Shown: positions 1-64,000 of the stretch, piece after piece | Layout: the number at the start of each line of letters is the position of its first letter | Numbering within the stretch: position 1 is the stretch's first letter | Virus record (IMG/VR): IMGVR_UViG_3300010391_001464 | Location: 26,145 to 90,144 of that record | Source of the DNA: a virus | Length of the DNA stretch: 64,000 nt | Strand: one strand, 5' to 3' | Program-made: the position numbers and the translations under genes | Notes under the pieces: model-generated | What the model was told of the DNA's origin: nothing | What the model saw: only the letters and a program-made list of their open reading frames with translations | Database searches by the model: none

Positions 1-321
1 GGAAAAGAAATCCAAATAATGATGGACTCAGATTTAAATTATATTTGGGATTCTGATCAACAAAAACCACATTTGTACCTAGCTACATTATTAAAAGAAA
101 TTTTAAACTCAATAAAATTTGATAAAGAAGTTAGAACTGTATATCATCAATTCATTAAAGAGTTTACTGGATCTGGTTGGCATGGAGGAGACCCACAAGG
201 TAAATATATTTTACCTAGTGGTGCTGTCCTAAAAGAGACAATTGTAGGAACTATGGATATTTCTAAAGATATTGATATTAGAGATACTTTATTGATTACT
301 GAATGGACTAAAGGAAGATAA
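1..321 (+). CDS. Hypothetical protein, 3' part (frame open from the window edge)
   Basis: Frame of the 19..321 ORF has no stop back to base 1. Confidence 0.6.
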   Translation, partial: GKEIQIMMDSDLNYIWDSDQQKPHLYLATLLKEILNSIKFDKEVRTVYHQFIKEFTGSGWHGGDPQGKYILPSGAVLKETIVGTMDISKDIDIRDTLLITEWTKGR

Positions 322-356: not shown

Positions 357-695
357 ATGAAAATTAAAAGCGATTTTGTGACTAATAGTTCTAGTTCTTC
401 ATATATAGTATATATTCCTAAAAATGTAACATTTGATAAGTTAAAGATACAAGATAATATTGAAGGATCAAACTTGGCAAGTTTAGAAAAAGTTTATAAC
501 GAATTACTAAAATCTAAAAAGTTTAATGAATATGACAGTTCCGAAATATTTAGTACTCTTAGAACATTCTTATATAATAATAAGTTAATTGTGAGTTCAA
601 TAGATACGGGACCTGATTTTGGTTCTATTATATTGGTAGATTTAGAATCGATAAATAAAATAAATGAGAGGTTTTCTGATGATACGAATAGCTAA
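357..695 (+). CDS. 'FVTNSSS'-motif protein
   Basis: N-terminus MKIKSDFVTNSSSSSYIV; paralogous N-termini at 63166 and 63621. Confidence 0.8.
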   Translation: MKIKSDFVTNSSSSSYIVYIPKNVTFDKLKIQDNIEGSNLASLEKVYNELLKSKKFNEYDSSEIFSTLRTFLYNNKLIVSSIDTGPDFGSIILVDLESINKINERFSDDTNS

Positions 696-1700
696 CTGGT
701 TATTGACAAGAAGATGTAATCTTAAATGTTCTTATTGTGCTATTGCAATGGATTATCCTAAAATGCCATTAGAATATCCTGAAATGGCTCATTATTCAAA
801 ATATGAAATGAGAACTGAAATAGTATTAGATTATTTAGAAAGACTTAAAGCTCATAATCCAAATATGTTTCATATTTTCTATGGTGGTGAACCGCTCTTA
901 AGAAAGATCTTCCTGAAATAATTAAGTTTTGTAATGATAAAGATATTCAATATACTATTATTACAAATAACTCAAATGCTATTCAACCCGCTTTAAATGA
1001 ATTAGTACAAAAAGTTGGAACTTTAAAAGGACTAACTTCTTCAGTTGATCCTATAATTATGAGGTCTGACTATTCCGATTTAGATAGATTAAAGAAAAGT
1101 AAGGCTGGATTTGAAAGATTAACTGAATGGAAGAAAAAAATAAATGACGTAGTTGCAGAAGTAACAGTGGATGAAGAAATGCTAGATGATTTAATACCAT
1201 TAGTATCAATGTTAACCGAAAATGGTATTAGTAGTTCTATAACATTTGTGGATATTTCAAAAAGTAAATATTATGATTTTTCAAATATAACAGATGAAAA
1301 AGTACTAGTCAATAAGAGTGAAAAAGTAAGGAATATTCTTAAAGAATTGGAAAATGATAAATATGACGTTCATATGGCTAAAGAGCTATTGCCTAGGATT
1401 TATGATATATTACCATCAAATCTAGATTGTGGACTTGATAAGAATGTGCATAATTTAACCATAGATGCTGATGGGTCTGTCAGATTATGCCTTAGAGTTA
1501 GAGGATGTAAAACATCTGACCATTATCTAGATGAATATATTAACTATGATGGAAATATAAATGATAATCTATTATATAATATTAGAGAAGATAAAAAAGA
1601 GTTTTGTCTTAGATGTAATTGGACATGTGGAATCATGACATCTTTAATTGAAGAAGGAAGTTCAAATTATAATAAGTTAGTACATTCTGATAGGAGATAA
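679..1700 (+). CDS. Radical SAM protein with Cys-rich (SPASM/twitch-like) C-terminus; frameshift near 905
   Basis: CNLKCSYC (CxxxCxxC) and YGGEP; one added A gives RKDLPEIIKFC...YTIITN joining ORF 1059..1700; DADGSVRLC and CLRCNWTC. Confidence 0.85.
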
Positions 1701-10110: not shown

Positions 10111-12813
10111 ATGCCCAAATTTTTAAATTTTCATGAATTTTGTAAAGAGTTGCCAGAAATAACAAGTGTAAAAATTATAGATAAAAAAAATTTCCATTCA
10201 GAAGGTTTATTTTCTGAGCAGATCTTTGGACCATTAAATAATTATACATGTCAATGTGGTATTTATTACGGCTCATCAAAGGATGGTTATTTATGTCCTG
10301 AATGTAATGTACAAGTTGTAAATAGTGATGAGAGGAGAAGAAGATTTGCAAAAATTATACTTCCTATTCCAGTAGTAAATCCATTATTTTATGATATGTT
10401 AGTAGATATTGGAGATGGAGATTTAAAAGATATATTAGATGAAATTATGAAAAGTGATGTTAGTATTATGTATAAAGATAAAGATGTTTATTATGTTACG
10501 GAACAAGGAAAACAACCGGAAGGAGTAGAAACCTGGGAACGACTTGATGCAATATATGAAGTAGTAAGTAATATCTCAAATAAATTAGCTGAGAAAGGAA
10601 TCGAAGAGTGGAAAATAGTTAATAAAAATTTAGATAATCTAATAATAGATCAGATTATCGTGTTACCACCTGACTTACGGCCAGCAGCTAAGGGAATTGA
10701 GAGAAATAATCAAGTACTTGACCAAATTAATAGGTACTATGCTCAAATCCTTCATAAGAAGGAATCTATGAAGGATACAATTATTGATATTGAAAAAGAT
10801 AAGAAACTATATTATAGTTATTATAGGCAAATTCAAAAAGATGTGTCAGAACTATATAAACATATACTTGAAAAACTTTCTAAAAAAGAAGGACTAATTA
10901 GAGGAAATATTTTAGGGAAAAGAATTGATTTTTCAGGAAGAGCAGTTATTGTTCCTGACCCAACTCTTGACTTAGATTCATGTGTATTACCTTATCTTAT
11001 GTTTTTAGAATTATTTAAACTTCAAGTATCTAAACGATTAATATATAAAGGAAAGTTTAAACTTCTCAATAACGCAATTGATTTTGTTGATAAATGTATT
11101 GAATTAAAAACTACATCATTATTTAGAATATGTGAAGAAATTGCAAAAGATGAAGTATGTATTTTAAATAGACAACCATCTTTACATCGTTTAAGCATGA
11201 TAGGTTTTAATATAAAAATATCATTAGATGAAGTAATTAAAATTCATCCATTGGTATGTCCTGGATTTAATGCTGACTTTGACGGGGATCAAATGGCAGT
11301 ATATGTTCCTATTACTGAAGTCACTAAACAAGAAGTTAAAGATAAGCTTCTAATGTCAAAGAATTTAAATAATCCATCTGACAATAGTTTGAGTACTACT
11401 CCTAGCCAAGATATTATTTTAGGTCTTTATTCTTTATCTGCAAATTTATTTCCAGATTTACTGGAAATAGTTGAATTTAAAGGAAGAAAGATTACAGAAA
11501 GTAGAAAAATTGTAAATGAATGTTTTCCAGATGATTATCCAATAGTAGATGAAGAGTTAAAAAAATTAAATATTATAAAAATTTTGAATGATATTAAAGA
11601 CAGATATCCTGAATCAGTTATAAAGGAAGTATTAGATAAAACTAAATTAGTAGGTTTTAAATATTCTACATTGTTTGGTTCAACAATGGCATTAAATGAA
11701 TGTTACCTTAAAGATGCTGACAAATATAAACAAATTATTTATTCTGAACAAGCAATATCACAACAGTTGAATAGAGTTTCTTCTAATGAAACCAAAGACT
11801 TAATGAAAAAGAACTTTAATTATGCATATACAGTTGAATCTGGAGCTAGAGGAAGTTGGGATCAAGTTAGACAAATCATTTTAACTAGAGGATTTATATC
11901 TAACTTTAAAGGACAGATACTTCCAGTTCCAATTAAACATAGTTTAATAGATGGATTAAATCAAGAAGAATTTTTTCTATCAACATATGGTTGTAGAAAA
12001 GGACTTCTTGATGTAGCTTTAAATACTGGAATCTCAGGTTATTTATCTAGAAAATTAATATTTACTTGTTCAAATCTTCAGTTAGATGAAAACTTAAAAG
12101 ATTGTGGAACTACCGATACATTAAGTATTTTTGTAAAAGATGAAAAGAAAGCAAAAATGTTAATCGGTAGATGGTTTGTAATTAATAATAATTTAATTTT
12201 GATTACAAAGGCTAATTACGAATCTTTTGTAGGTCAAACTTTAAATTTAAGAAGTCCAATATTATGTAAAAGCCCAAAAGTATGTACTACTTGCTATGGA
12301 GATTTATATAAATCTTTACATAGTAAATTTGTAGGAGTTATATCAGCTCAGTCTTTAGGTGAATGTAATACTCAACTCGTTCTCCGCACGTTTCACACGA
12401 GTGGAGTTGCATCTGTAAAAGATAAGATAAATAATAAAGATATGATCCAACAAGATATTATTGGAGATTTATCTTCAGTGTCTAAAATGCTTCATAATTT
12501 TCAAGGAAAAAATTATACAGATTTAGTTAGTAAGCTTTTTGAGGTATATAATAATAGTAGAAAAATTCATCATGTTCATTTTGAAGTATTGGTTGCACAA
12601 TTGATGTGGAATAATCTCCATAAGTGGAGATTATTAGAAGATAGAGATAAAAAAGAAATACAATTTTACTCAGTTCAAACTGTGCCAGCAAAAGAAAGTT
12701 GGTTGTTAGGTTTAGCATTTAGCAACCCAAAGAAAAATATCCTTAGTGGTATTCTTTATCCTGGAAACTATACTGGAGTAATGGATAAAATTCTATGTGG
12801 AGAAAAGATATAG
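10111..12813 (+). CDS. rpoC: Phage multisubunit RNA polymerase beta'-like subunit
   Basis: NADFDGD catalytic motif, GKRIDFSGR, LNRQPSLHR, SGYLSRKL bridge helix, TQLVLRTFH trigger loop, two Cys clusters. Confidence 0.97.
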   Translation: MPKFLNFHEFCKELPEITSVKIIDKKNFHSEGLFSEQIFGPLNNYTCQCGIYYGSSKDGYLCPECNVQVVNSDERRRRFAKIILPIPVVNPLFYDMLVDIGDGDLKDILDEIMKSDVSIMYKDKDVYYVTEQGKQPEGVETWERLDAIYEVVSNISNKLAEKGIEEWKIVNKNLDNLIIDQIIVLPPDLRPAAKGIERNNQVLDQINRYYAQILHKKESMKDTIIDIEKDKKLYYSYYRQIQKDVSELYKHILEKLSKKEGLIRGNILGKRIDFSGRAVIVPDPTLDLDSCVLPYLMFLELFKLQVSKRLIYKGKFKLLNNAIDFVDKCIELKTTSLFRICEEIAKDEVCILNRQPSLHRLSMIGFNIKISLDEVIKIHPLVCPGFNADFDGDQMAVYVPITEVTKQEVKDKLLMSKNLNNPSDNSLSTTPSQDIILGLYSLSANLFPDLLEIVEFKGRKITESRKIVNECFPDDYPIVDEELKKLNIIKILNDIKDRYPESVIKEVLDKTKLVGFKYSTLFGSTMALNECYLKDADKYKQIIYSEQAISQQLNRVSSNETKDLMKKNFNYAYTVESGARGSWDQVRQIILTRGFISNFKGQILPVPIKHSLIDGLNQEEFFLSTYGCRKGLLDVALNTGISGYLSRKLIFTCSNLQLDENLKDCGTTDTLSIFVKDEKKAKMLIGRWFVINNNLILITKANYESFVGQTLNLRSPILCKSPKVCTTCYGDLYKSLHSKFVGVISAQSLGECNTQLVLRTFHTSGVASVKDKINNKDMIQQDIIGDLSSVSKMLHNFQGKNYTDLVSKLFEVYNNSRKIHHVHFEVLVAQLMWNNLHKWRLLEDRDKKEIQFYSVQTVPAKESWLLGLAFSNPKKNILSGILYPGNYTGVMDKILCGEKI

Positions 12814-12814
12814 G

Positions 12815-13828
12815 ATGTACTTTTGCGATTATGGTTGTGGTAATGAAGCAATAATTACGTTCAAAAATGGAAAAAAGTGTTGCCAAGAAAAATATTCAAA
12901 ATGTCCCGGGTTACGAAAAAAATATAGTAACCCGGGATCTAAAAATCCAAGATTTGGTAAGCATTGGTCTGAGGAATGGAAAAAAAATCATTCTGAAAAA
13001 TTAGTAGGAAGAAAGATTAAAAGAACTTTTATTCCTATAAAATTAGAAGAAGACAAAAATATCTTATGTGATTTTTGTAATAAAAGACTAGCTAAGTATA
13101 AATTAAATAATGGAAAAAATTGTTGTGAAGAACATCAAAGTAAATGTCCAGAAATAAGAGTTAAAATAGGAAAAAAAATAAAAGGAAAAATGGTTGGTAT
13201 AAATCATCCATTTTTTGGAAAAACTCACACAGATGAAGTTAAACAATTACAATCTATTAGAGTAAAAGGAAATAAATATAATTTAAATACATTAAATAAG
13301 ATAAATAAAAAGTATCCATTTTTTTCAGAGATTGAAAATACAAAAGAGATAAATGGAAGTTTAATAGTAAAATGTAAACATTGTAAAAAATGGTTTGAAC
13401 CTACAAGATCTCAGTTATATGAAAGAATTTATGCTATAAAAAATAAAGGGACTATTCATGATACAGGAAATTCATATTTTTACTGTTCTTCTGAATGTAA
13501 ACTAGAGTGTGTATATTATTACAGAAAAAAAGATCCTGACATTCTAAGAGAATATGAAAGATATAAACAAAATGTATTAAAATATACTAATAGAAATATA
13601 AAATTTAACTTTGATAAAATCGAAAATTCAAGTAAAAAAATAAATGGAGATAACTTAGAACTGGATCATAAATTTTCAATATATTCAGGTTTTATAAATA
13701 ATATTGATCCAAAAATAATTGGTCATTGGAAAAATTTAAAATATATAAAAAAAGTAGAAAATAGAAAGAAAAGAGAATCTTGTTCTATAACTATTGAAGA
13801 AGTTCTTTCATATTCACAGGAGGTTTAA
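12815..13828 (+). mobile_element. Free-standing HNH/NUMOD3-type homing endonuclease between the RNAP genes
   Basis: NPRFGKHWSEE and HPFFGKTHTDE NUMOD3 repeats, CxxC motifs, C-terminal ELDH...HWKNL...N..K. Confidence 0.8.
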
Positions 13829-13832
13829 AATA

Positions 13833-16800
13833 TTGAATATTATTAATCCTAATTTTAAAGTTAATGAAGATAAAAATATTTTTAATATTAGACAAAAGGA
13901 ATTTGATAACTTAGAACCTTTAATAAGACAAACTATTTCTCCAGTAGAGGAACTTGGTTTTACTGTTAAAGAATTTGGAATCAGAGAAAGTAGATATACT
14001 GCAGGAGATCTAAGTAAAACTTTAAAACAAAATATAGTTATTAAACTTGAGAAAAATAGTACTGATATAGATATAACTTTAGCAATGCCAACATTGGTTG
14101 ATAAAAATTATATAGTTATAGGTGGAAGAAAAAAAATTCCTCAATTTCAATTATTTGATGTTCCAGTTATAACAAGAGGAAAAAGTACTAAAATAAGAAC
14201 GAATGTTGCTACAATTATAGTAGAAGAGGAAAAAAATCCACCATTTATTAGCGTAACTGTATTAAGTAAAAAAGTTCCACTTTCTCTTATTATTTTTGCT
14301 AAATATTCTAAACAAGAAATTATTGATAGATTTAAATTAGTGGACCTTGATGAGGAGTCATTAAAAAGAGATAATTATTATGAAAAATTATTATATGATT
14401 TAAAGAAAACATATATTGAAGCAATAAATTCTGAAATGACTCAAGATGATTTTATTAAAGCTCTCGGTGAGTACTACTCAAAATATAATGCTAAAGTAAA
14501 AGGTGAAGATGTCATATATGCTTTAGATATTATGTTAAAAGTAGATATTATGACCGCTAGATTTTTTAAATCTAAAAATATCATAGATGAAATAATTGAA
14601 GTAATAAAATTAGGTGAGATTGATGATCTAGATTATAGAAATAAAAGAATTAGATGTTTTGAGTATATAGTATTAGCAAAAGTTTCAAAAATTATATTCG
14701 ACCTTTGTACATCAAATAGATCGCTAAAACAACCAAAATTTAATGTAAATTCTACTCAAATTTTAACTGAATGTAACGTGTCTGATATAGTTCAGTTTGA
14801 TTTTTCTATTAATCCTATAGAGGAATTAACTAAACTATCTAGAGTAAGTTTAGTAGGCCCAGGTGGTTTTGATAAACAAAATATTCCGGAGCATCTAAGG
14901 GATGTAGCTCCTACAATGTTTGGAAGAATATGTCCAGTTGATACTCCAGATAGAGAAAATTGTGGAGTTCAGCATAATTTATTACCAAATGTTGATTTAG
15001 ACGAAAATCTTAAATTTACAGATAAAATCCTAGATAAACAACCAATATCTATTCCAGTAGCAATGGTTCCATTCCTAGAACATGATGATCAAACCAGACT
15101 TCAAATGTCTTCTTCACAAATGAGACAGGCAATTATGTTAAAGGATTTTGACCAAGCATTAGTACAATCTGGAATAGAAGGAATATATACTGATCAAACT
15201 CAGTTTTTAAAACGTGCTAAAAAAGATGGAGAAATATTATATGTAGATAATAAATATATAATAGTTGTTTATGATGATAAAGAAGTTGAAATATTTGATA
15301 TATCATATAGAAAAATTTATGTAGGAAATATGGACATATTCAAAGTCTATATAAAACAAGGAGACAAAGTAAAGCGAGGTGATATATTAGCTGAAAGTAA
15401 TTATTGCCATGATGGAAGGATACAATTTGGAAAGAATTTATTAACAGGTGTAATGATTCATTATGGTTATAATTATGAAGACGGTATAGTAATATCAGAT
15501 AGATTAGTAAAGGATGGAATTCTTACTTCTCCTCATTTTGTAGATTTATCATTTAATATCCCAACTAATAAGGTTTTATTAACTCTTGATTCTAAGAAGT
15601 ATAAACCCTTGCCAGAAATAGGCGAAGAGATAAAAAATGGTAATCCCTACGCAATAATAAAAGAAATGCCAACAGATAACATGGTTGATTATTATACTGT
15701 GTTCGAAGAATCAAATCCATTATTAACTAAAAATGACACGATTGTAACTGAAGCAAACATATTTATTAATGAATGGAATGAGAATATTCCAGAATTTAAT
15801 CATTGGGTTAAAGATGTAATTAAAAAGCAAAATAGAGAAGAAGAACAATTTCAAGGAATTCTTAATGAATATTTACCGAAAGACTCAGCTACTAAATTTA
15901 TAAAAGATAATGATTTAGATAAATTTTCATCAGTTGGTAAATATAAAATAAAGAATGAAAAAATAAATGGTATTCATGTAGAAATGTATGGAATATTCTT
16001 TAGGCCTATAAAGGTCGGAGATAAAATTGGAAATAGACATGGTAATAAAGGTATAATTTCAAATATAGTACCACATGATAAAATGCCAAAGTTAGAGGAT
16101 GGTAGACATCTTGATATTTGTATAAATCCACTTGGTATTATATCTAGAATGAATATTGGTCAATTATTTGAATTACATTTAACAATGTCTATTAATGATT
16201 TAAAGAAAAATCTTTTAGTAATGTTGAACAGTAGTTCAAATACTAAACAGATTGATATGAAAAAATATTTAATAGAATATATTAAGATTTTAGATAATAC
16301 TGTTGGTAATTGGTATTCTTGTCAGTTCATATCTCAAATTCCAAAAGTTATAGATGAAAACTTTATAAATAATTTATTTATAGTTCAACCACCGTTTGAA
16401 TCAACTCCAATACAAAAGATTGAAGAGGCATTAAAATTTACAGGTACTAATTTTACTTATAATTTACATGATCCTATTTCTAATCATAATTTCTTAAATA
16501 AAATAGCAGTAGGTTATATGTATTTCTTCAGAATGGTACATATAGCTGAAAACAGACTAGCGGCTAGAGGTATTGCATCTTACGCTAGAAGAACTCTTCA
16601 ACCATTAGCAGGAAGAAAAAACCGTGGTGGACAAAGATGTGGAGAAATGGAAACTGCATGTTTAATTGCGCATGATGCCCCACATAATTTATATGAATTT
16701 CAGACTACTAAATCTGACTGTATAGATTTAAAAAATAAATATATTCGAGAACAAATAGAAACAGATTTAGTTAAAGAAGAAAAAGAGATTGATTCTGTAT

Positions 16801-16862
16801 CAGAGTCAGTTAAATTACTGAATGCATACCTCACTGTAATAGGTGTAGATCGTAAAAACTAA
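13833..16862 (+). CDS. rpoB: Phage multisubunit RNA polymerase beta-like subunit
   Basis: GRICPVDTPD, PFLEHDD, YNYEDG, GDKIGNRHGNKG, SRMNIGQ, GGQRCGEME; TTG start after GGAGG. Confidence 0.97.
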   Translation: MNIINPNFKVNEDKNIFNIRQKEFDNLEPLIRQTISPVEELGFTVKEFGIRESRYTAGDLSKTLKQNIVIKLEKNSTDIDITLAMPTLVDKNYIVIGGRKKIPQFQLFDVPVITRGKSTKIRTNVATIIVEEEKNPPFISVTVLSKKVPLSLIIFAKYSKQEIIDRFKLVDLDEESLKRDNYYEKLLYDLKKTYIEAINSEMTQDDFIKALGEYYSKYNAKVKGEDVIYALDIMLKVDIMTARFFKSKNIIDEIIEVIKLGEIDDLDYRNKRIRCFEYIVLAKVSKIIFDLCTSNRSLKQPKFNVNSTQILTECNVSDIVQFDFSINPIEELTKLSRVSLVGPGGFDKQNIPEHLRDVAPTMFGRICPVDTPDRENCGVQHNLLPNVDLDENLKFTDKILDKQPISIPVAMVPFLEHDDQTRLQMSSSQMRQAIMLKDFDQALVQSGIEGIYTDQTQFLKRAKKDGEILYVDNKYIIVVYDDKEVEIFDISYRKIYVGNMDIFKVYIKQGDKVKRGDILAESNYCHDGRIQFGKNLLTGVMIHYGYNYEDGIVISDRLVKDGILTSPHFVDLSFNIPTNKVLLTLDSKKYKPLPEIGEEIKNGNPYAIIKEMPTDNMVDYYTVFEESNPLLTKNDTIVTEANIFINEWNENIPEFNHWVKDVIKKQNREEEQFQGILNEYLPKDSATKFIKDNDLDKFSSVGKYKIKNEKINGIHVEMYGIFFRPIKVGDKIGNRHGNKGIISNIVPHDKMPKLEDGRHLDICINPLGIISRMNIGQLFELHLTMSINDLKKNLLVMLNSSSNTKQIDMKKYLIEYIKILDNTVGNWYSCQFISQIPKVIDENFINNLFIVQPPFESTPIQKIEEALKFTGTNFTYNLHDPISNHNFLNKIAVGYMYFFRMVHIAENRLAARGIASYARRTLQPLAGRKNRGGQRCGEMETACLIAHDAPHNLYEFQTTKSDCIDLKNKYIREQIETDLVKEEKEIDSVSESVKLLNAYLTVIGVDRKN

Positions 16863-28353: not shown

Positions 28354-29691
28354 TTGGAGAATAACGTGGAAAAAGTAATACAAATAGCTAAAGAAATAAA
28401 AAAGAATAATGGTTATTGTTATATAAATGGAGGATATGTAAGAGATAAAGTTTTAGGATATCCTTCTAAAGATATTGACGTTGAAGTTTATAAGTTAAAT
28501 CCACAGATTCTTTTCAATATTCTTTCTAAATTTGGAACACCAAAATTAGGAGGTAAAAGTTTTGGAGTATTCAAATTAGATGAATATGATTTTAGTCTTC
28601 CAAGAAGAGAGAAAAAGATAGGGTCCAAACATACGGATTTTGATGTAGAATGTGATAAAAATATGACTCCAGAAGAAGCATGTATAAGAAGAGATCTAAC
28701 AATAAATGCGTTATTAATGGATCCCTTTACAAATTCTATTTACGATTATTATGGTGGTCTTGACGATATAAAAAATAAAATTATTAGACATGTGTCTAAT
28801 AAATTTTCTGAAGATCCTTTAAGAGTAATAAGAGTTGCAAGATTCAGTTCAAGATTTGAATTTGAAATTTATAAAGAAACTAAACTATTATGTGAGTCTC
28901 TATTATGTGAATTAAAATATTTACCAAAAGAAAGATTTTTTACTGAGTTTGAAAGTATTTTATTAAAGAGCAAAAATCCTTCTATTGCATTTAATTTCTT
29001 ATCTTCAATTGGTATAATAGAATCTTATTATCCTGAATTAGATGTATTAAAATATATTGAGCAGGGAGAAAAATATCATCCTGAAGGATCTGTATGGAAC
29101 CATGTTTTAATGGCATTAGACCAAATACCTTTAGAGGAAAGAACATTAACAACAATGTTAGCAATTCTATGTCATGATATGGGAAAAGCAATAGTGAAGC
29201 AAGAAGATAAAGGTGATGGTCATATCTCATTTAAATATCATGCAGATGATGGTGTTTATCCAGCTGAAAAGTTTTTAAAAAGTATAACTAATGAAACTCA
29301 GTTAATAAATAATGTTTTAAATTTAGTAAAACATCATATGAGGCCATATGATTTAAAGAAACAAATTAATAAAAATAACATAAGAAGACTTGCATTAACT
29401 GTTGATATTCCTTCATTAATGATAGTACATAAAGCAGATAAATTAAGAAGAGGTTATCAAGAATTAGATTTAGACTATATTCAGAAGATGATAAAAGTAT
29501 ATAATGAAATAAAAGATGAAGTTAAACCTTTAATTCAAGGAAGACATTTAATTGAATTAGGTTTAGAACCAGGAAACTATTTTGGCCCGATCTTAAAACA
29601 AATATTTGAGTTACAAATAAATGGTGAATTCTCAAATATTGAAGATCGAATTAAATTAGCGAAAGAGAGAAATATAATATGTCTAAAATGA
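28354..29691 (+). CDS. cca: tRNA nucleotidyltransferase (CCA-adding class II) with HD domain
   Basis: GGYVRD, DIDVE, RRDLTINA, EDPLRVIR.ARF, HPEG...H, LCHDMGK. Confidence 0.9.
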   Translation: MENNVEKVIQIAKEIKKNNGYCYINGGYVRDKVLGYPSKDIDVEVYKLNPQILFNILSKFGTPKLGGKSFGVFKLDEYDFSLPRREKKIGSKHTDFDVECDKNMTPEEACIRRDLTINALLMDPFTNSIYDYYGGLDDIKNKIIRHVSNKFSEDPLRVIRVARFSSRFEFEIYKETKLLCESLLCELKYLPKERFFTEFESILLKSKNPSIAFNFLSSIGIIESYYPELDVLKYIEQGEKYHPEGSVWNHVLMALDQIPLEERTLTTMLAILCHDMGKAIVKQEDKGDGHISFKYHADDGVYPAEKFLKSITNETQLINNVLNLVKHHMRPYDLKKQINKNNIRRLALTVDIPSLMIVHKADKLRRGYQELDLDYIQKMIKVYNEIKDEVKPLIQGRHLIELGLEPGNYFGPILKQIFELQINGEFSNIEDRIKLAKERNIICLK

Positions 29692-60318: not shown

Positions 60319-61790
60319 TTAATTATTTACCATAGTAAATTTTAAATTACCACAATCCCAGATTCTTTGATACCCTTGTTCTTTTCTTAAAATATATTCA
60401 GGAATATCCTTTGCTTCATCTGGAAGTTTTCTTAAATTAAATCTATGTATTCTATTATATCCTTTTATATACCAATAATTTGGCTTAGTAATATGGTCTA
60501 ATTCAAAATCTAATTTATAATATACATTTCCTTGACTCCACCTTCTATCAGCATAACTGAATATTTGTTTCCATTTATAATTTCTTTTAAAATATTCCAA
60601 AAGCTTTCCAGCAATACCGATAACTCTATAATTAAAATCAATACAAAATCTATTTAATTCCCAAATATCTTCTTCTGATTTTGATCCTTTTGAAATATTT
60701 CCATGGCTGAAAGTCATTATTGATATTAAAATATCATTATAAAATGCTCCTAATTTAATATTAGAACTATCTATTCCCTGTAAATGAAATTTCTCAAGAA
60801 AATTATTTTTGGTTTTAGAATCTATTTCTTTAATTGTACAGTTTCTTGCATATATAATTTTTGATTTATTTTTGTTTAAAATCTGTTCTATACGTTTTTT
60901 AACTATAGATTTTTTAAATAACCATTCATCTTCAAAAATATGAATAAGTCTAATATTTTTATCTTTACATAAATTAGTTTTATTTACATGATAATTAATA
61001 TCTAGTTTATCGTCAGAATGCCAATATAGCCCATCAAATTCTATAGCAACATTATAATCAGGTAAAAATATATCTAGTTCTTTTGGACCAATAATTTTCT
61101 TAGTTTTATAAACCACCTTTTCTATATTTATTTCATTCAAAAATTCTTTTAACTCAATTTCAAATCTAGAAGTTCCATTATTAGTTGGATAGCAGTTAGG
61201 ACACCTTTTACCACACTGAACATAATTCCATATTGTGTTAAATGATGTTTTACATATTTACAAGTAAATGTATATTCTAAATGAGCACCATTATATTCTG
61301 GATCTATTTCTAAATTTTCATTTTTTAAAATTATTTTTACAACTTTTTCTCTTTGATATTTATATCTACTTTCTACTGCTTTAATATTAACTTCTTTTAA
61401 CTTCATCATATTATCAGTTTTATATTTTTTGATAATATTATTTTTAAATTCTTCACTTCCATAACTAAAAGGAACATCAACACCATATTTTTGTTTATTA
61501 GTCTTTTTTCTTTTTTCTTTAGCTATATTTAATTTTTCATCAGTTAATGATATTTTAAATTTTTCTATTCTATCAAGGCTATTATTTGAGCACTTTAAAC
61601 TACAATATTTCTGATATCCTAACGATATATTTTTAAATTTTGTTTCGTTTCCACAAAAACTACAATATTTTTCATTTTCATTCTTTAAAAAAAATTATCA
61701 TAGTAAAATTTACTACTAATATTATGATTTAAAAGATGTTGAGATAAAGACTTTAATGAAACTAGTTCCTTTTTACAAATTTCACAATTC
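60319..61790 (-). mobile_element. Homing endonuclease-like gene (Vsr/PD-(D/E)xK core), frameshifted
   Basis: ELDIFLP..NVAIEFDGLYWH, IHIFEDEW, YARNC, SYADRRWS.G, IWDCG; upstream fragments KYCS..C and TNKQKYGV. Confidence 0.7.
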
Positions 61791-62221: not shown

Positions 62222-63169
62222 ATGTTTAACTCTGAGTCTGGAGTAGAAATATTAACTGGTATTAACGGAAATCCAGATCCGTTTGTTTTAGATATGCCAA
62301 ATATGATTGATATTGGAGTTATGGGGCATTGTAAAAATAAATGCCCTATGTGTTATCAGGGAGATAAAGATCAACCTAATATGACTTTTGAGAATTATAA
62401 GAAATTAATGAATGAAGTAAAAGATGTAGTTAATCAAGTTGCTTTAGGTGGACGTGGTGATCCTAATCATCATGAAAATTTTAAAGAAATATTAGAATAT
62501 ACGAGAAAATCAAATATAGTTCCAAATTATACAACTTCTGGAATAGATATTACTGATAATCAAGTAGAAACTTCAAAAATGGCTGGGGCAGTAGCTGTCT
62601 CTGATTATCAAAAAGATTTTACATACATTTCTATTGATAAGTTAATAAGAGCAGGTATAAAAACAAATATTCATACAATATTTTCAAACCAAAATGCTCA
62701 AAGATGTATTGATATGATTAATGGAGTTGATGTATGGAATGGAAGAGTGGATTTAAATAAATTAAATGCCGTTGTATTTTTGTTATTTAAACCTCAAGGA
62801 AAAGGTAAATCACTTCTATCTTGGATTCCGTCAGTGGACCAGATTAGAAGGTTCTCAGACGCGATCAAGGATCCCAAGTGTAAATTTAAAATTGGCATGG
62901 ACAGTTGTACTGTTTGTAAACTAAAACAAATAGGACGAGAGTTCTCCAAAGTAGAGGAAATGATGTTAGATACTTGTGAAGCAGGAAGAATGTCAAGTTA
63001 TATAACACCAGATATGAAATTTATGCCTTGTAGTTTTTGTAATCATGAAAAAGAAGGAATATCAATTCTAGAAAATGATATTAAAAAAGTGTGGGAGGAA
63101 GGGCATTCATTTAAAAACGTTAGAGAAATTTTACTAAATAAACCAATGAGTTGTCCATATTTTTTATGA
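62222..63169 (+). CDS. Radical SAM/SPASM protein (start possibly 62187 with an indel)
   Basis: CKNKCPMC, ALGGRGDP, NYTTSG, CEAGR.S.YI.PD....PCSF, C-terminal CP. Confidence 0.9.
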   Translation: MFNSESGVEILTGINGNPDPFVLDMPNMIDIGVMGHCKNKCPMCYQGDKDQPNMTFENYKKLMNEVKDVVNQVALGGRGDPNHHENFKEILEYTRKSNIVPNYTTSGIDITDNQVETSKMAGAVAVSDYQKDFTYISIDKLIRAGIKTNIHTIFSNQNAQRCIDMINGVDVWNGRVDLNKLNAVVFLLFKPQGKGKSLLSWIPSVDQIRRFSDAIKDPKCKFKIGMDSCTVCKLKQIGREFSKVEEMMLDTCEAGRMSSYITPDMKFMPCSFCNHEKEGISILENDIKKVWEEGHSFKNVREILLNKPMSCPYFL

Positions 63170-63624
63170 GAATTAAAACTGACTTTGTAACAAATAGTTC
63201 TTCCACATCATTTATTATTGATGATGGAAGAACTATTATCCAGGTTGCATTTGAGATTTTAGATATTATAGAAAAAAAATGTTTAGATGATAAGTATACA
63301 GAGTGGTATAAAACTGAAGATGGTAAAGCTAGAATAGATGGTGATTTTTCTAGAGTTCTAAATGCAAAAAAACAAATTAAATATTTAAAATATTTTAGAG
63401 ATATAAATATCTTTATTCCATTTACTACTTATATATCGACTTTTATCTATAAAGAATTTTGTACTTTTTCAAAAATACGAGTAGATACTTCTGATCATCA
63501 TAATTGGAATAGTATAAATTATAAGTACTTTCTTGAAATGGATAAATGTTATGACATAGGTCATGATTTAAAATTTATAAATATTGAAGATCGTACAATT
63601 AATTCGAGAGATAAATCTATATGA
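63166..63624 (+). CDS. 'FVTNSSS'-motif protein
   Basis: MRIKTDFVTNSSSTSFII; ATGA overlap with the radical SAM stop codon. Confidence 0.8.
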   Translation: MRIKTDFVTNSSSTSFIIDDGRTIIQVAFEILDIIEKKCLDDKYTEWYKTEDGKARIDGDFSRVLNAKKQIKYLKYFRDINIFIPFTTYISTFIYKEFCTFSKIRVDTSDHHNWNSINYKYFLEMDKCYDIGHDLKFINIEDRTINSRDKSI

Positions 63625-64000
63625 GACTAAAAATTGATTTTGTAACTAACTCAAGTTCGAGTAGTTTTATAATGATAGGTGTTAAAAATAATGAAATCAT
63701 AGAAAAATATATAGAAAGAATTTTATGGTCAAAACCAGGAAAAAAACTAGATTTTTATAATAGAGATAATTATTTAAATGACTATAATGAGATTTTTGAA
63801 GAAATAGATCATTCAATTTATCAAGTAGGAACATTTTATCATTTTTTTGAGAATGAAGAATATTATGCTTATAAAAACCCAGGTTTTTTAGGGCTTGATT
63901 TAGAAGAAATGTTAAGAAGAAATTTAAATTTTACAGAAATGAAAGCAGAAGTCATTAAAAAATTCAATGATGTTGAAATAGCAGTTGATGAAAAACAAAT
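63621..64000 (+). CDS. 'FVTNSSS'-motif protein, runs off the window (absent from ORF track)
   Basis: ATG AGA CTA AAA ATT GAT TTT GTA ACT AAC TCA AGT TCG AGT AGT TTT = MRLKIDFVTNSSSSSF; ATGA overlap; open to 64000. Confidence 0.8.
   Translation, partial: MRLKIDFVTNSSSSSFIMIGVKNNEIIEKYIERILWSKPGKKLDFYNRDNYLNDYNEIFEEIDHSIYQVGTFYHFFENEEYYAYKNPGFLGLDLEEMLRRNLNFTEMKAEVIKKFNDVEIAVDEKQ

Follow-up and report, generated by a model that had tools for sequence, protein, structure and literature searches.

The stretch of DNA analysed here, hereafter the window, comprises 64,000 bp (bases 26145-90144) of the 90,144-bp IMG/VR viral record IMGVR_UViG_3300010391_001464. Near each of its ends it carries genes for small proteins that begin with a common N-terminal peptide (the tag), and next to them a gene for a radical S-adenosylmethionine (SAM) enzyme, referred to as rSAM-1 for the first locus and rSAM-2 for the second. 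An earlier note, made from the letters of the window, had pointed out three open reading frames (ORFs) with this peptide; all of them exist, at 357-695, 63166-63624 and 63621 to the end, and they start with MKIKSDFVTNSSSSSY, MRIKTDFVTNSSSTSF and MRLKIDFVTNSSSSSF, respectively. The features of the two loci are the following.

1..321, plus strand: C-terminal 106 of the 195 residues of a tagged protein (P0001), which starts with MKIKTDFITNSSSTSF, 266 bases upstream of the window, and has a second conserved motif, GxGWxGGDPxGxY.
357..695, plus strand: tagged protein of 112 aa, isoelectric point (pI) 4.9; residues 1-16 (bases 357-404) form the tag.
679..903, plus strand: N-terminal part of rSAM-1, MIRIANWLLTRRCNLKCSYC..., with CX3CX2C; 17-base overlap with the end of ORF 357-695.
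897..905, plus strand: site of the rSAM-1 frameshift, with one base fewer in AAGAAAG than in full-length homologues.
906..1700, plus strand: C-terminal part of rSAM-1 in another frame, with the auxiliary-cluster cysteines C...C...CxxCxxxC.
62222..63169, plus strand: rSAM-2, 315 aa, GHCKNKCPMCYQG; conserved auxiliary cysteines 229, 252, 270 and 311; structure model with a predicted local distance difference test score (pLDDT) of 93.
63166..63624, plus strand: tagged protein of 152 aa, with its start codon and the stop codon of rSAM-2 sharing bases (ATGA); residues 1-45 were used in co-folding.
63621..64000, plus strand: tagged protein of more than 126 aa, in ATGA overlap with the preceding gene and cut by the end of the record.

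Six ORFs, all on the plus strand, begin at their first residue with M(K/R)(I/L)KxDF(V/I)TNSSSxS(F/Y), so the count of three given earlier was right for the window but not for the full 90-kb record. The extra copies are located just upstream of the window at genome positions 24800, 25476 and 25878, the last one being P0001, which ends at window position 321. The first cluster is a row of four tagged ORFs, with one untagged ORF between them, that ends in rSAM-1 (window 679-1700), and in the second cluster rSAM-2 (62222-63169) is followed by two tagged ORFs. The back-translated pattern DF(V/I)TNSSS was found 3 times in the window compared to 0.00 times expected (100 shuffles). In an alignment of the six paralogues the residues M1, K4, D6, F7, T9, N10, S11, S12, S13 and S15 were invariant, and after the tag there was no alignment at all, the bodies falling into separate BLAST clusters, in agreement with the dissimilarity described before. 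At the DNA level 10-21 of the 48 bases of the tag differed between the six copies and its serines were encoded by both AGY and TCN codons. Given these base differences and the mixed serine codons, it is the peptide that is conserved and not an RNA or DNA element, and the earlier claim of selection on the peptide can be retained.

The genetic coupling at both loci was also confirmed. At 63166 and 63621 the ATGA overlaps are as described, and the overlap at 679-695 (17 bases) is correct if rSAM-1 starts at the ATG at 679, which is its likely start because the homologues begin with MIRIANWLLTRRCNL; an in-frame ATG at 664 is also possible. Each tagged cluster is coupled to one radical SAM gene as stated in the earlier note, but the gene after ORF 357 is frameshifted: a full-length homologue aligned to window 682-903 in one frame and to 897-1697 in another. 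Among the rSAM-1 homologues 22 are intact single ORFs of 340-360 aa, and a pseudogene, a programmed shift or a mistake in the assembly could each account for the interrupted copy.

When the tagged proteins were compared with Pfam, PHROGs, NCBIfam and PADLOC the only matches were phrog_7397 and phrog_21396, both of which match the tag alone. Searches of the ESM Atlas with P0001 and with a tagged protein from Tissierella returned only unnamed, mostly viral clusters, and a tagged protein of 83 aa had no match in cultured phages. Out of 1.84 billion cluster representatives, 12,842 were matched by a profile of the first 45 residues (E ≤0.001), and among the 150 profile matches listed almost all matched from residue 1. 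Similarly, the tag began at Met1 in 95% of 273 unique tags. With its 12,842 clusters and no Pfam, NCBIfam or PADLOC model, the family represents a large blind spot in phage genomes.

The proteins that carry the tag are whole proteins of about 80-511 aa, and 272 tagged bodies were distributed over 61 BLAST clusters with a median length of 128 aa and a median pI of 4.7. Compared with the loci sampled, three of the bodies in the window (that of ORF 357-695 among them) were without relatives and one belonged to a 29-member family. The family of P0001 is characterised by an invariant GxGWxGGDPxGxY near the C-terminus, and its members (L104:601-1293, L079:12195-12890 and L028:8202-8891) are often located directly upstream of rSAM-1. 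A structural model of a body from this family, of moderate quality (pLDDT 69), gave no match in the PDB at E 0.001 and only weak START-like rows with a template modelling (TM) score of 0.35. Some other tagged proteins run straight from the tag into a CxxC motif (…NSSSSSYICEICG…; L007:3984-4571, L010:11219-11818 and L006:11640-12203), a sequence pattern which suggests that zinc-ribbon bodies are among the cargo.

To what extent the tag and the enzymes occur together was determined in both directions. The IMG/VR database was scanned for DF(V/I)TNSSS, which gave 406 stretches of which 189 were confirmed, and the best 72 loci were analysed. In these, 244 ORFs carried the tag, with 1-7 in each locus and usually in tandem, and in 61/72 loci a homologue of rSAM-1 (n=21) or rSAM-2 (n=41) lay no more than 10 kb away, in every case on the same strand as the tag. 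For the rSAM-1 homologues the tagged gene was always upstream, with a median gap of 0, and for the rSAM-2 homologues the adjoining tagged gene was downstream in 39/41 cases, with a median gap of 131; this fixed gene order is the arrangement seen in the window. Five contigs had no enzyme near the tag locus, and four of these carried one or both enzymes elsewhere, two of them both types, like the present record. Starting from the enzyme, 67 of the 80 loci that were fetched by similarity to rSAM-2 alone had tags within 8 kb, with 153 tags on the enzyme strand and 0 on the opposite strand (1.04 Mb). The earlier note had proposed a search for FVTNSSS combined with a check for radical SAM genes and had regarded motif proteins that occur independently of such genes as evidence against its reading; the linkage found in both directions instead speaks for it. 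The residue after NSSS leans towards Ser near the phage rSAM-2 and towards Thr near rSAM-1. A tag specificity for each enzyme type was considered on this basis and rejected, since Thr is also found in bacterial cassettes with rSAM-2 homologues and lineage may explain the difference.

The two enzymes showed no BLAST similarity to each other. Both matched Radical_SAM (PF04055), with scores of 33.9 and 35.0 bits (cut-off 29.5), and no other Pfam family. The cluster motif reads RRCNLKCSYC (CX3CX2C) in rSAM-1 and GHCKNKCPMC (C37-x3-C41-x2-C44) in rSAM-2, and the motif and the Pfam score, together with a partial triosephosphate isomerase (TIM)-barrel fold in the model of rSAM-2, place them in the radical SAM superfamily. 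None of the NCBIfam equivalogs came near its cut-off for either enzyme and PADLOC gave weak viperin-like matches only. The AlphaFold model of rSAM-2 (pLDDT 93) consists of alternating strands and helices with the barrel starting from residue 28. In a Foldseek search it retrieved radical SAM structures only, in the order SuiB, SkfB, PqqE, viperins and the anaerobic sulfatase-maturating enzyme anSME; the match to SuiB (5v1q) had an E-value of 1e-14 and a TM score of 0.69-0.71, and further matches were 6efn and 6c8v. No match in cultured phages was found for rSAM-1, and rSAM-2 has relatives at 28% identity in the cultured phages RB16, KP27 and Miro-like phages. In the relative from RB16 (L078:3896-5050) the cluster motif is CX8CX2C, and several subgroups of rSAM-2 (L006, L010, L031 and others) likewise have a longer spacing in place of CX3CX2C, for example HCxHGxSGLCxxxGVxCYQ.

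The designation of the enzymes as SPASM-type could be upheld only in part. The rSAM-2 of the window keeps four auxiliary cysteines (C229, C252, C270 and C311) yet stops short of the CxxCx5CxGGC block of its bacterial relatives, and the seven-cysteine motif of SPASM (PF13186/TIGR04085), including CX2CX5CX3C, was not found in it. Because this final block is absent from its subgroup, rSAM-2 is, as judged from its sequence, twitch-like rather than a full SPASM enzyme. For rSAM-1 the SPASM match was not significant (E 0.33, 11.7 bits, cut-off 21.5), though CxxCxxxC is present, and no curated maturase family was reached.

In the AlphaFold model of the P0001 family residues 1-12 had no regular structure (coil, pLDDT below 50), and the body's first strand began at residue 15. 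For the interaction with the enzyme, rSAM-2 (61-row alignment) was co-folded with the first 45 residues of the protein at 63166-63624 (100-row alignment), two clusters and SAM. The interface score ipSAE (interaction prediction score from aligned errors) was 0.82, 0.69 and 0.78 (median 0.78) compared to 0.00 for the best of 3 controls, the partner had a pLDDT of 62-64, and at least 65% of the contacts were common to the runs. In the calibration of the method the mark was reached by 58/80 solved complexes and 2/110 mismatched pairs, figures that apply only roughly here, given the use of own alignments and ligands. Residues 1-19 of the tagged protein touched rSAM-2. D6, F7, V8 and T9 were modelled against the rSAM-2 strands 72-74, 100-104, 122-125, 147-151, 182-183 and 223-229, and residues 2-5 were paired with rSAM-2 residues 8-11. 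Of the 51 invariant or near-invariant columns of rSAM-2, 23 were in the interface (odds ratio 6.7, Fisher p 8e-8). A model of the complex of peptide and enzyme had been proposed as a check in the earlier note; the one obtained, in which the tag lies in the barrel, speaks for a tail that docks in the substrate site, but as a prediction it reports binding geometry and not a reaction.

If the system were specific to phages, as the earlier note had assumed, one would not expect the pair of tag and enzyme in cellular genomes. A search of prokaryotes with the DF(V/I)TNSSS pattern, using one genome per species, gave 46 loci in Clostridia, Bacteroidales, Desulfobacterota, Nitrospirota, Campylobacterota, Omnitrophota, Planctomycetota, Chloroflexota and archaeal bins. 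In about 40 of the 46 a single tagged gene of ~135 aa was followed directly by an rSAM-2 homologue, and in 25 of them the tagged gene was preceded by two genes, for a protein of 730-1070 aa and a protein of ~135 aa. The longer of these proteins is an Avs2-like STAND NTPase (PADLOC Avs2 E 2e-24), with an NCBIfam Avs2 score of 55 bits, far under the cut-off of 1000. The small protein is a paralogue of the tagged protein minus residues 1-12 (hhalign probability 97%, alignment from residue 13). Taken together, this tag-less paralogue and the disorder of residues 1-12 in the AlphaFold model indicate that residues 1-12 or 13 are a free tail on a folded body. The same tag-enzyme pair thus occurs beside Avs2-like STAND NTPases in bacteria and archaea, and the notion of a phage-only system had to be abandoned. 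In its four-gene form the cassette encodes an Avs2-like/SMEK STAND NTPase, the tag-less ~135-aa paralogue, the tagged ~135-aa protein, the final residue of which is almost always Trp, and an rSAM-2 homologue with the full SPASM cysteine block. Cassettes are present in the cultured Tissierella praeacuta DSM 18095 (L103:5387-9457) and on the pAt plasmid of Agrobacterium tumefaciens Ach5 (L125:2583-7035), where the tag reads MKLKMDFVSNSSSTSF. When plasmids were searched for an enterobacterial copy, only Rhizobiales and Rhodobacter were found. The phage record itself has no STAND gene.

These findings are compatible with the idea that the tag is both the docking site and the substrate peptide of a protein-modifying radical SAM system, which we consider the probable explanation. 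The first ~13 residues, MK(I/L)KxDF(V/I)TNSSS (13-16 residues depending on where the limit is set), would form a free N-terminal tail that serves as a common docking and substrate peptide for the radical SAM enzymes encoded beside the tagged genes. The tail would thread into the lateral opening of the enzyme barrel, with D6-T9 reaching furthest in, close to SAM and the cluster, and with residues 2-5 pairing with the N-terminal strand of the enzyme. A radical-mediated change would then be made in or beside the tail of each client, so that one enzyme could mature a set of unrelated, mostly acidic small proteins. The essential part of the earlier note, a peptide-level tag tied to radical SAM enzymes, is in line with the two-way linkage and with docking scores above those of the controls. 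The aromatic-x-residue motifs that are cross-linked by some SPASM enzymes resemble F7-x-T9-N10. Our guess, made with low confidence, is that the modified site might be the invariant F7-x-T9/N10, for example through a C-C cross-link or through Calpha/Cbeta hydrogen abstraction as in peptide-modifying SPASM/twitch enzymes. The Ser modification given as an example in the earlier note would likewise be a guess. The bacterial context beside Avs2-like sensors suggests by analogy that the matured proteins may have a role in phage-host conflict.

The closest known systems are the SPASM/twitch maturases SuiB-SuiA (streptide), SkfB and PqqE-PqqA, which were the best structural matches of rSAM-2 and likewise combine CX3CX2C with C-terminal auxiliary cysteines and a translationally coupled substrate gene. 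Their substrates are short peptides, whereas the clients here are whole proteins of 83-511 aa, and the conserved element is here the extreme N-terminus common to many unrelated clients. No RRE/PqqD-type recognition domain was seen on either enzyme (Pfam; rSAM-2 model), and neither this domain nor the short precursor typical of maturases for peptides that are made on ribosomes and modified after translation (RiPPs) was found. The known cross-link motifs of Cys, Trp or Lys are absent from the tag. The anSME/AtsB enzymes are also radical SAM enzymes with auxiliary clusters and act on full-size proteins at a short Ser/Cys motif, and the anSME structure 4k36 is a structural neighbour of rSAM-2 (E 6e-9). 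Their clients are, however, sulfatases with C/S-x-P/A-x-R, and the clients here are not sulfatases and their tag lacks that motif; TIGR03942 reached 24.2 bits against a cut-off of 349, for the rSAM-1 fragment only, and the analogy with sulfatase maturases drawn in the earlier note therefore fails. Nor did the tag fit a thioether-forming Cys pattern, a glycyl-radical site or HxS repeats. In the HXS antiphage system the protein HxsA is matured by the radical SAM enzymes HxsB and HxsC (PMC13128918), and there too one finds two radical SAM enzymes, a protein effector matured in its N-terminal part and phage-host conflict. The clients described here differ from it in having no His-Xaa-Ser repeats and neither HxsD nor a peptidoglycan-binding domain, and the models for HxsB and HxsC scored far below their cut-offs (TIGR03977, 17.6 bits against 268; TIGR03978, 19.8 against 370).

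The context of the bacterial cassettes resembles that of the KpAvs2 operon. According to the part of the publication consulted, this operon includes Avap1 (radical SAM) and Avap2 (DUF6375), of which Avap2 binds the Avs2 sensor and Avap1 is required against some phages by an unknown chemistry (Bechon et al. 2024, PMC11564622). Like the bacterial relatives described here, the operon combines a STAND NTPase of the Avs2 type with a radical SAM protein and a partner of ~130 aa. The cassettes differ from KpAvs2 as it appears in that part of the paper by a second small paralogue, and the phage window by having no STAND gene; the TNSSS tag is not mentioned in the same part (PMC11564622). With HMMER, no match to PF19902 (DUF6375) was obtained in 5 cassette genomes or in 19 tagged proteins at E ≤10, it did not occur as a label among the matches of the paralogue or of a tagged body, and 301 genomes from a single phylum yielded neither this family nor the control; the consulted part of the paper describes a profile-profile search for DUF6375 (PMC11564622). 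The link to Avap1/Avap2, in which rSAM-2 is likened to Avap1 by description only, is thus a lead and not a result.

Several observations weigh against a tag that serves as a substrate. The reaction on the tag is deduced from sequences and models, and given that the tag has no Cys, no C/S-x-P/A-x-R and no Gly motif there is no precedent for it. One of the two enzymes of the record, rSAM-1, is frameshifted. Among the enzyme-fetched loci 13/80 were without a tag, one contig that is 84% complete showed one partner alone, and among cultured T4-like phages, for example RB16, the distant relatives of rSAM-2 are encoded without a tagged gene beside them. The co-fold, being a model, may borrow from solved complexes such as SuiB-SuiA and anSME-peptide, and any pose that fills the barrel would enrich conserved active-site residues.

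The alternative that survives best is that the tag docks on the radical SAM protein without being its substrate, the tagged proteins being adaptors, regulators, carriers or gates of an enzyme that acts on a small molecule or another macromolecule. We regard this as unlikely, but it would agree with a co-fold that gives only binding geometry, with the position of the bacterial cassettes behind Avs2-like NTPases and with the consulted description of the KpAvs2 operon, where Avap2 binds the sensor and the substrate of Avap1 is unknown (PMC11564622). It is opposed by the predicted placing of the tag, which fills the substrate position of the barrel against conserved residues, and by the presence of up to seven tagged proteins per enzyme, which are more easily read as clients than as regulators. 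Furthermore, the fold is nearest to peptide maturases and not to small-molecule enzymes, although viperin is close behind.

The three remaining alternatives are hard to reconcile with the two-way linkage, with the prokaryotic cassettes and with the tag-less paralogue. In the first of these, which we consider very unlikely, the tag is an enzyme-independent signal for sorting, packaging or turnover, such as a capsid-targeting sequence or an N-degron. The internal proteins of phage T4 are polymorphic and have in common only a short N-terminal targeting sequence, ~10 residues that end in an (L/I)xE site for the prohead protease. The tagged phage proteins recall these internal proteins in being small, variable and mostly acidic, with the tag at residue 1 and the genes in hyperplastic arrays. 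The conserved tag, however, has no (L/I)xE site and no Glu at all, and it is found, once per cassette and beside the enzyme, in non-viral cassettes of bacterial and archaeal genomes without virion genes; a T4-type capsid targeting sequence was rejected on these grounds, and the linkage to the enzyme is far too tight for an unrelated signal. Another explanation, raised already in the earlier note and with hardly any probability in our judgement, is a self-processing site (Asn-Ser cleavage or a Ser-derived pyruvoyl group) with the radical SAM gene linked for some other reason: the invariant Asn and Ser-Ser-Ser do recall Asn-cyclisation and Ser-Ser self-cleavage, but the tail was modelled as disordered, with no surrounding fold to catalyse the reaction, and the conserved MK(I)K-DFV half and the enzyme linkage would be left unexplained. 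Equally improbable are ordinary fast-diverging paralogues in which the first strand alone is conserved and synteny with radical SAM genes is accidental, since rapid divergence of small phage proteins and the membership of motif residues 15-18 in the first strand of the body cannot be reconciled with bodies of such different size (about 80-511 aa, 61 BLAST clusters), a paralogue without the tag, 12,842 clusters with the tag at residue 1, and an adjacency that is kept by two unrelated enzyme lineages and in many prokaryotic phyla and archaea.

If the tail is indeed a radical SAM substrate, it would be a portable tag through which one enzyme modifies many folded proteins. This would represent a new class of post-translational modification in viruses and possibly a tool by which any tagged protein could be modified by one enzyme, and it would provide a testable handle on the radical SAM partners of Avs2-type sensors as described in the consulted part of PMC11564622. 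The literature on the motif, phage radical SAM enzymes, RiPPs and jumbo phages was searched and no description of the tag-enzyme system was found. A wider scheme is put forward tentatively, as a possibility that we would not expect to hold in all its parts: twitch/SPASM enzymes could act on a universal 13-residue tail of dozens of unrelated proteins (at least 12,800 clusters at 50% identity) in a widespread modification system, which might be the effector or adaptor arm of Avs2-like sensors in bacteria and archaea and might have been captured by jumbo phages, with the enzyme duplicated into two lineages and the client arrays serving as a matured arsenal for or against defence.

The record as a whole is a fragment of a large, probably jumbo, phage. 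Its CheckV completeness is 29% and its GC content 27%, it was matched in one public dataset only, a sediment metagenome, with no RNA dataset listed, and its DNA had no match among cultured phages. Its genes include split multisubunit RNA polymerase beta-like proteins, a large terminase, baseplate proteins and a tRNA nucleotidyltransferase. The large ORFs at window 10111-12813 and 13794-16862 match phage multisubunit RNA polymerase beta-type subunits (phrog_25354, phrog_24349, phrog_3015 and phrog_3295), and these ORFs indicate that the record is jumbo-phage-like and not classical T4-like. The tRNA nucleotidyltransferase at window 28354-29691 is of the CCA-adding type (phrog_2244, E 9e-78). Upstream of the window there are ORFs that, judged by eye only, resemble genes for a Mre11/Rad50-type nuclease and an SMC-type ATPase. 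Finally, an ORF of 273 aa on the minus strand at window 60319-61140, situated among virion genes, matches the C-terminal half of phage homing/HNH endonuclease families (phrog_3339, E 1e-90) and, more weakly, a Mom-like protein.

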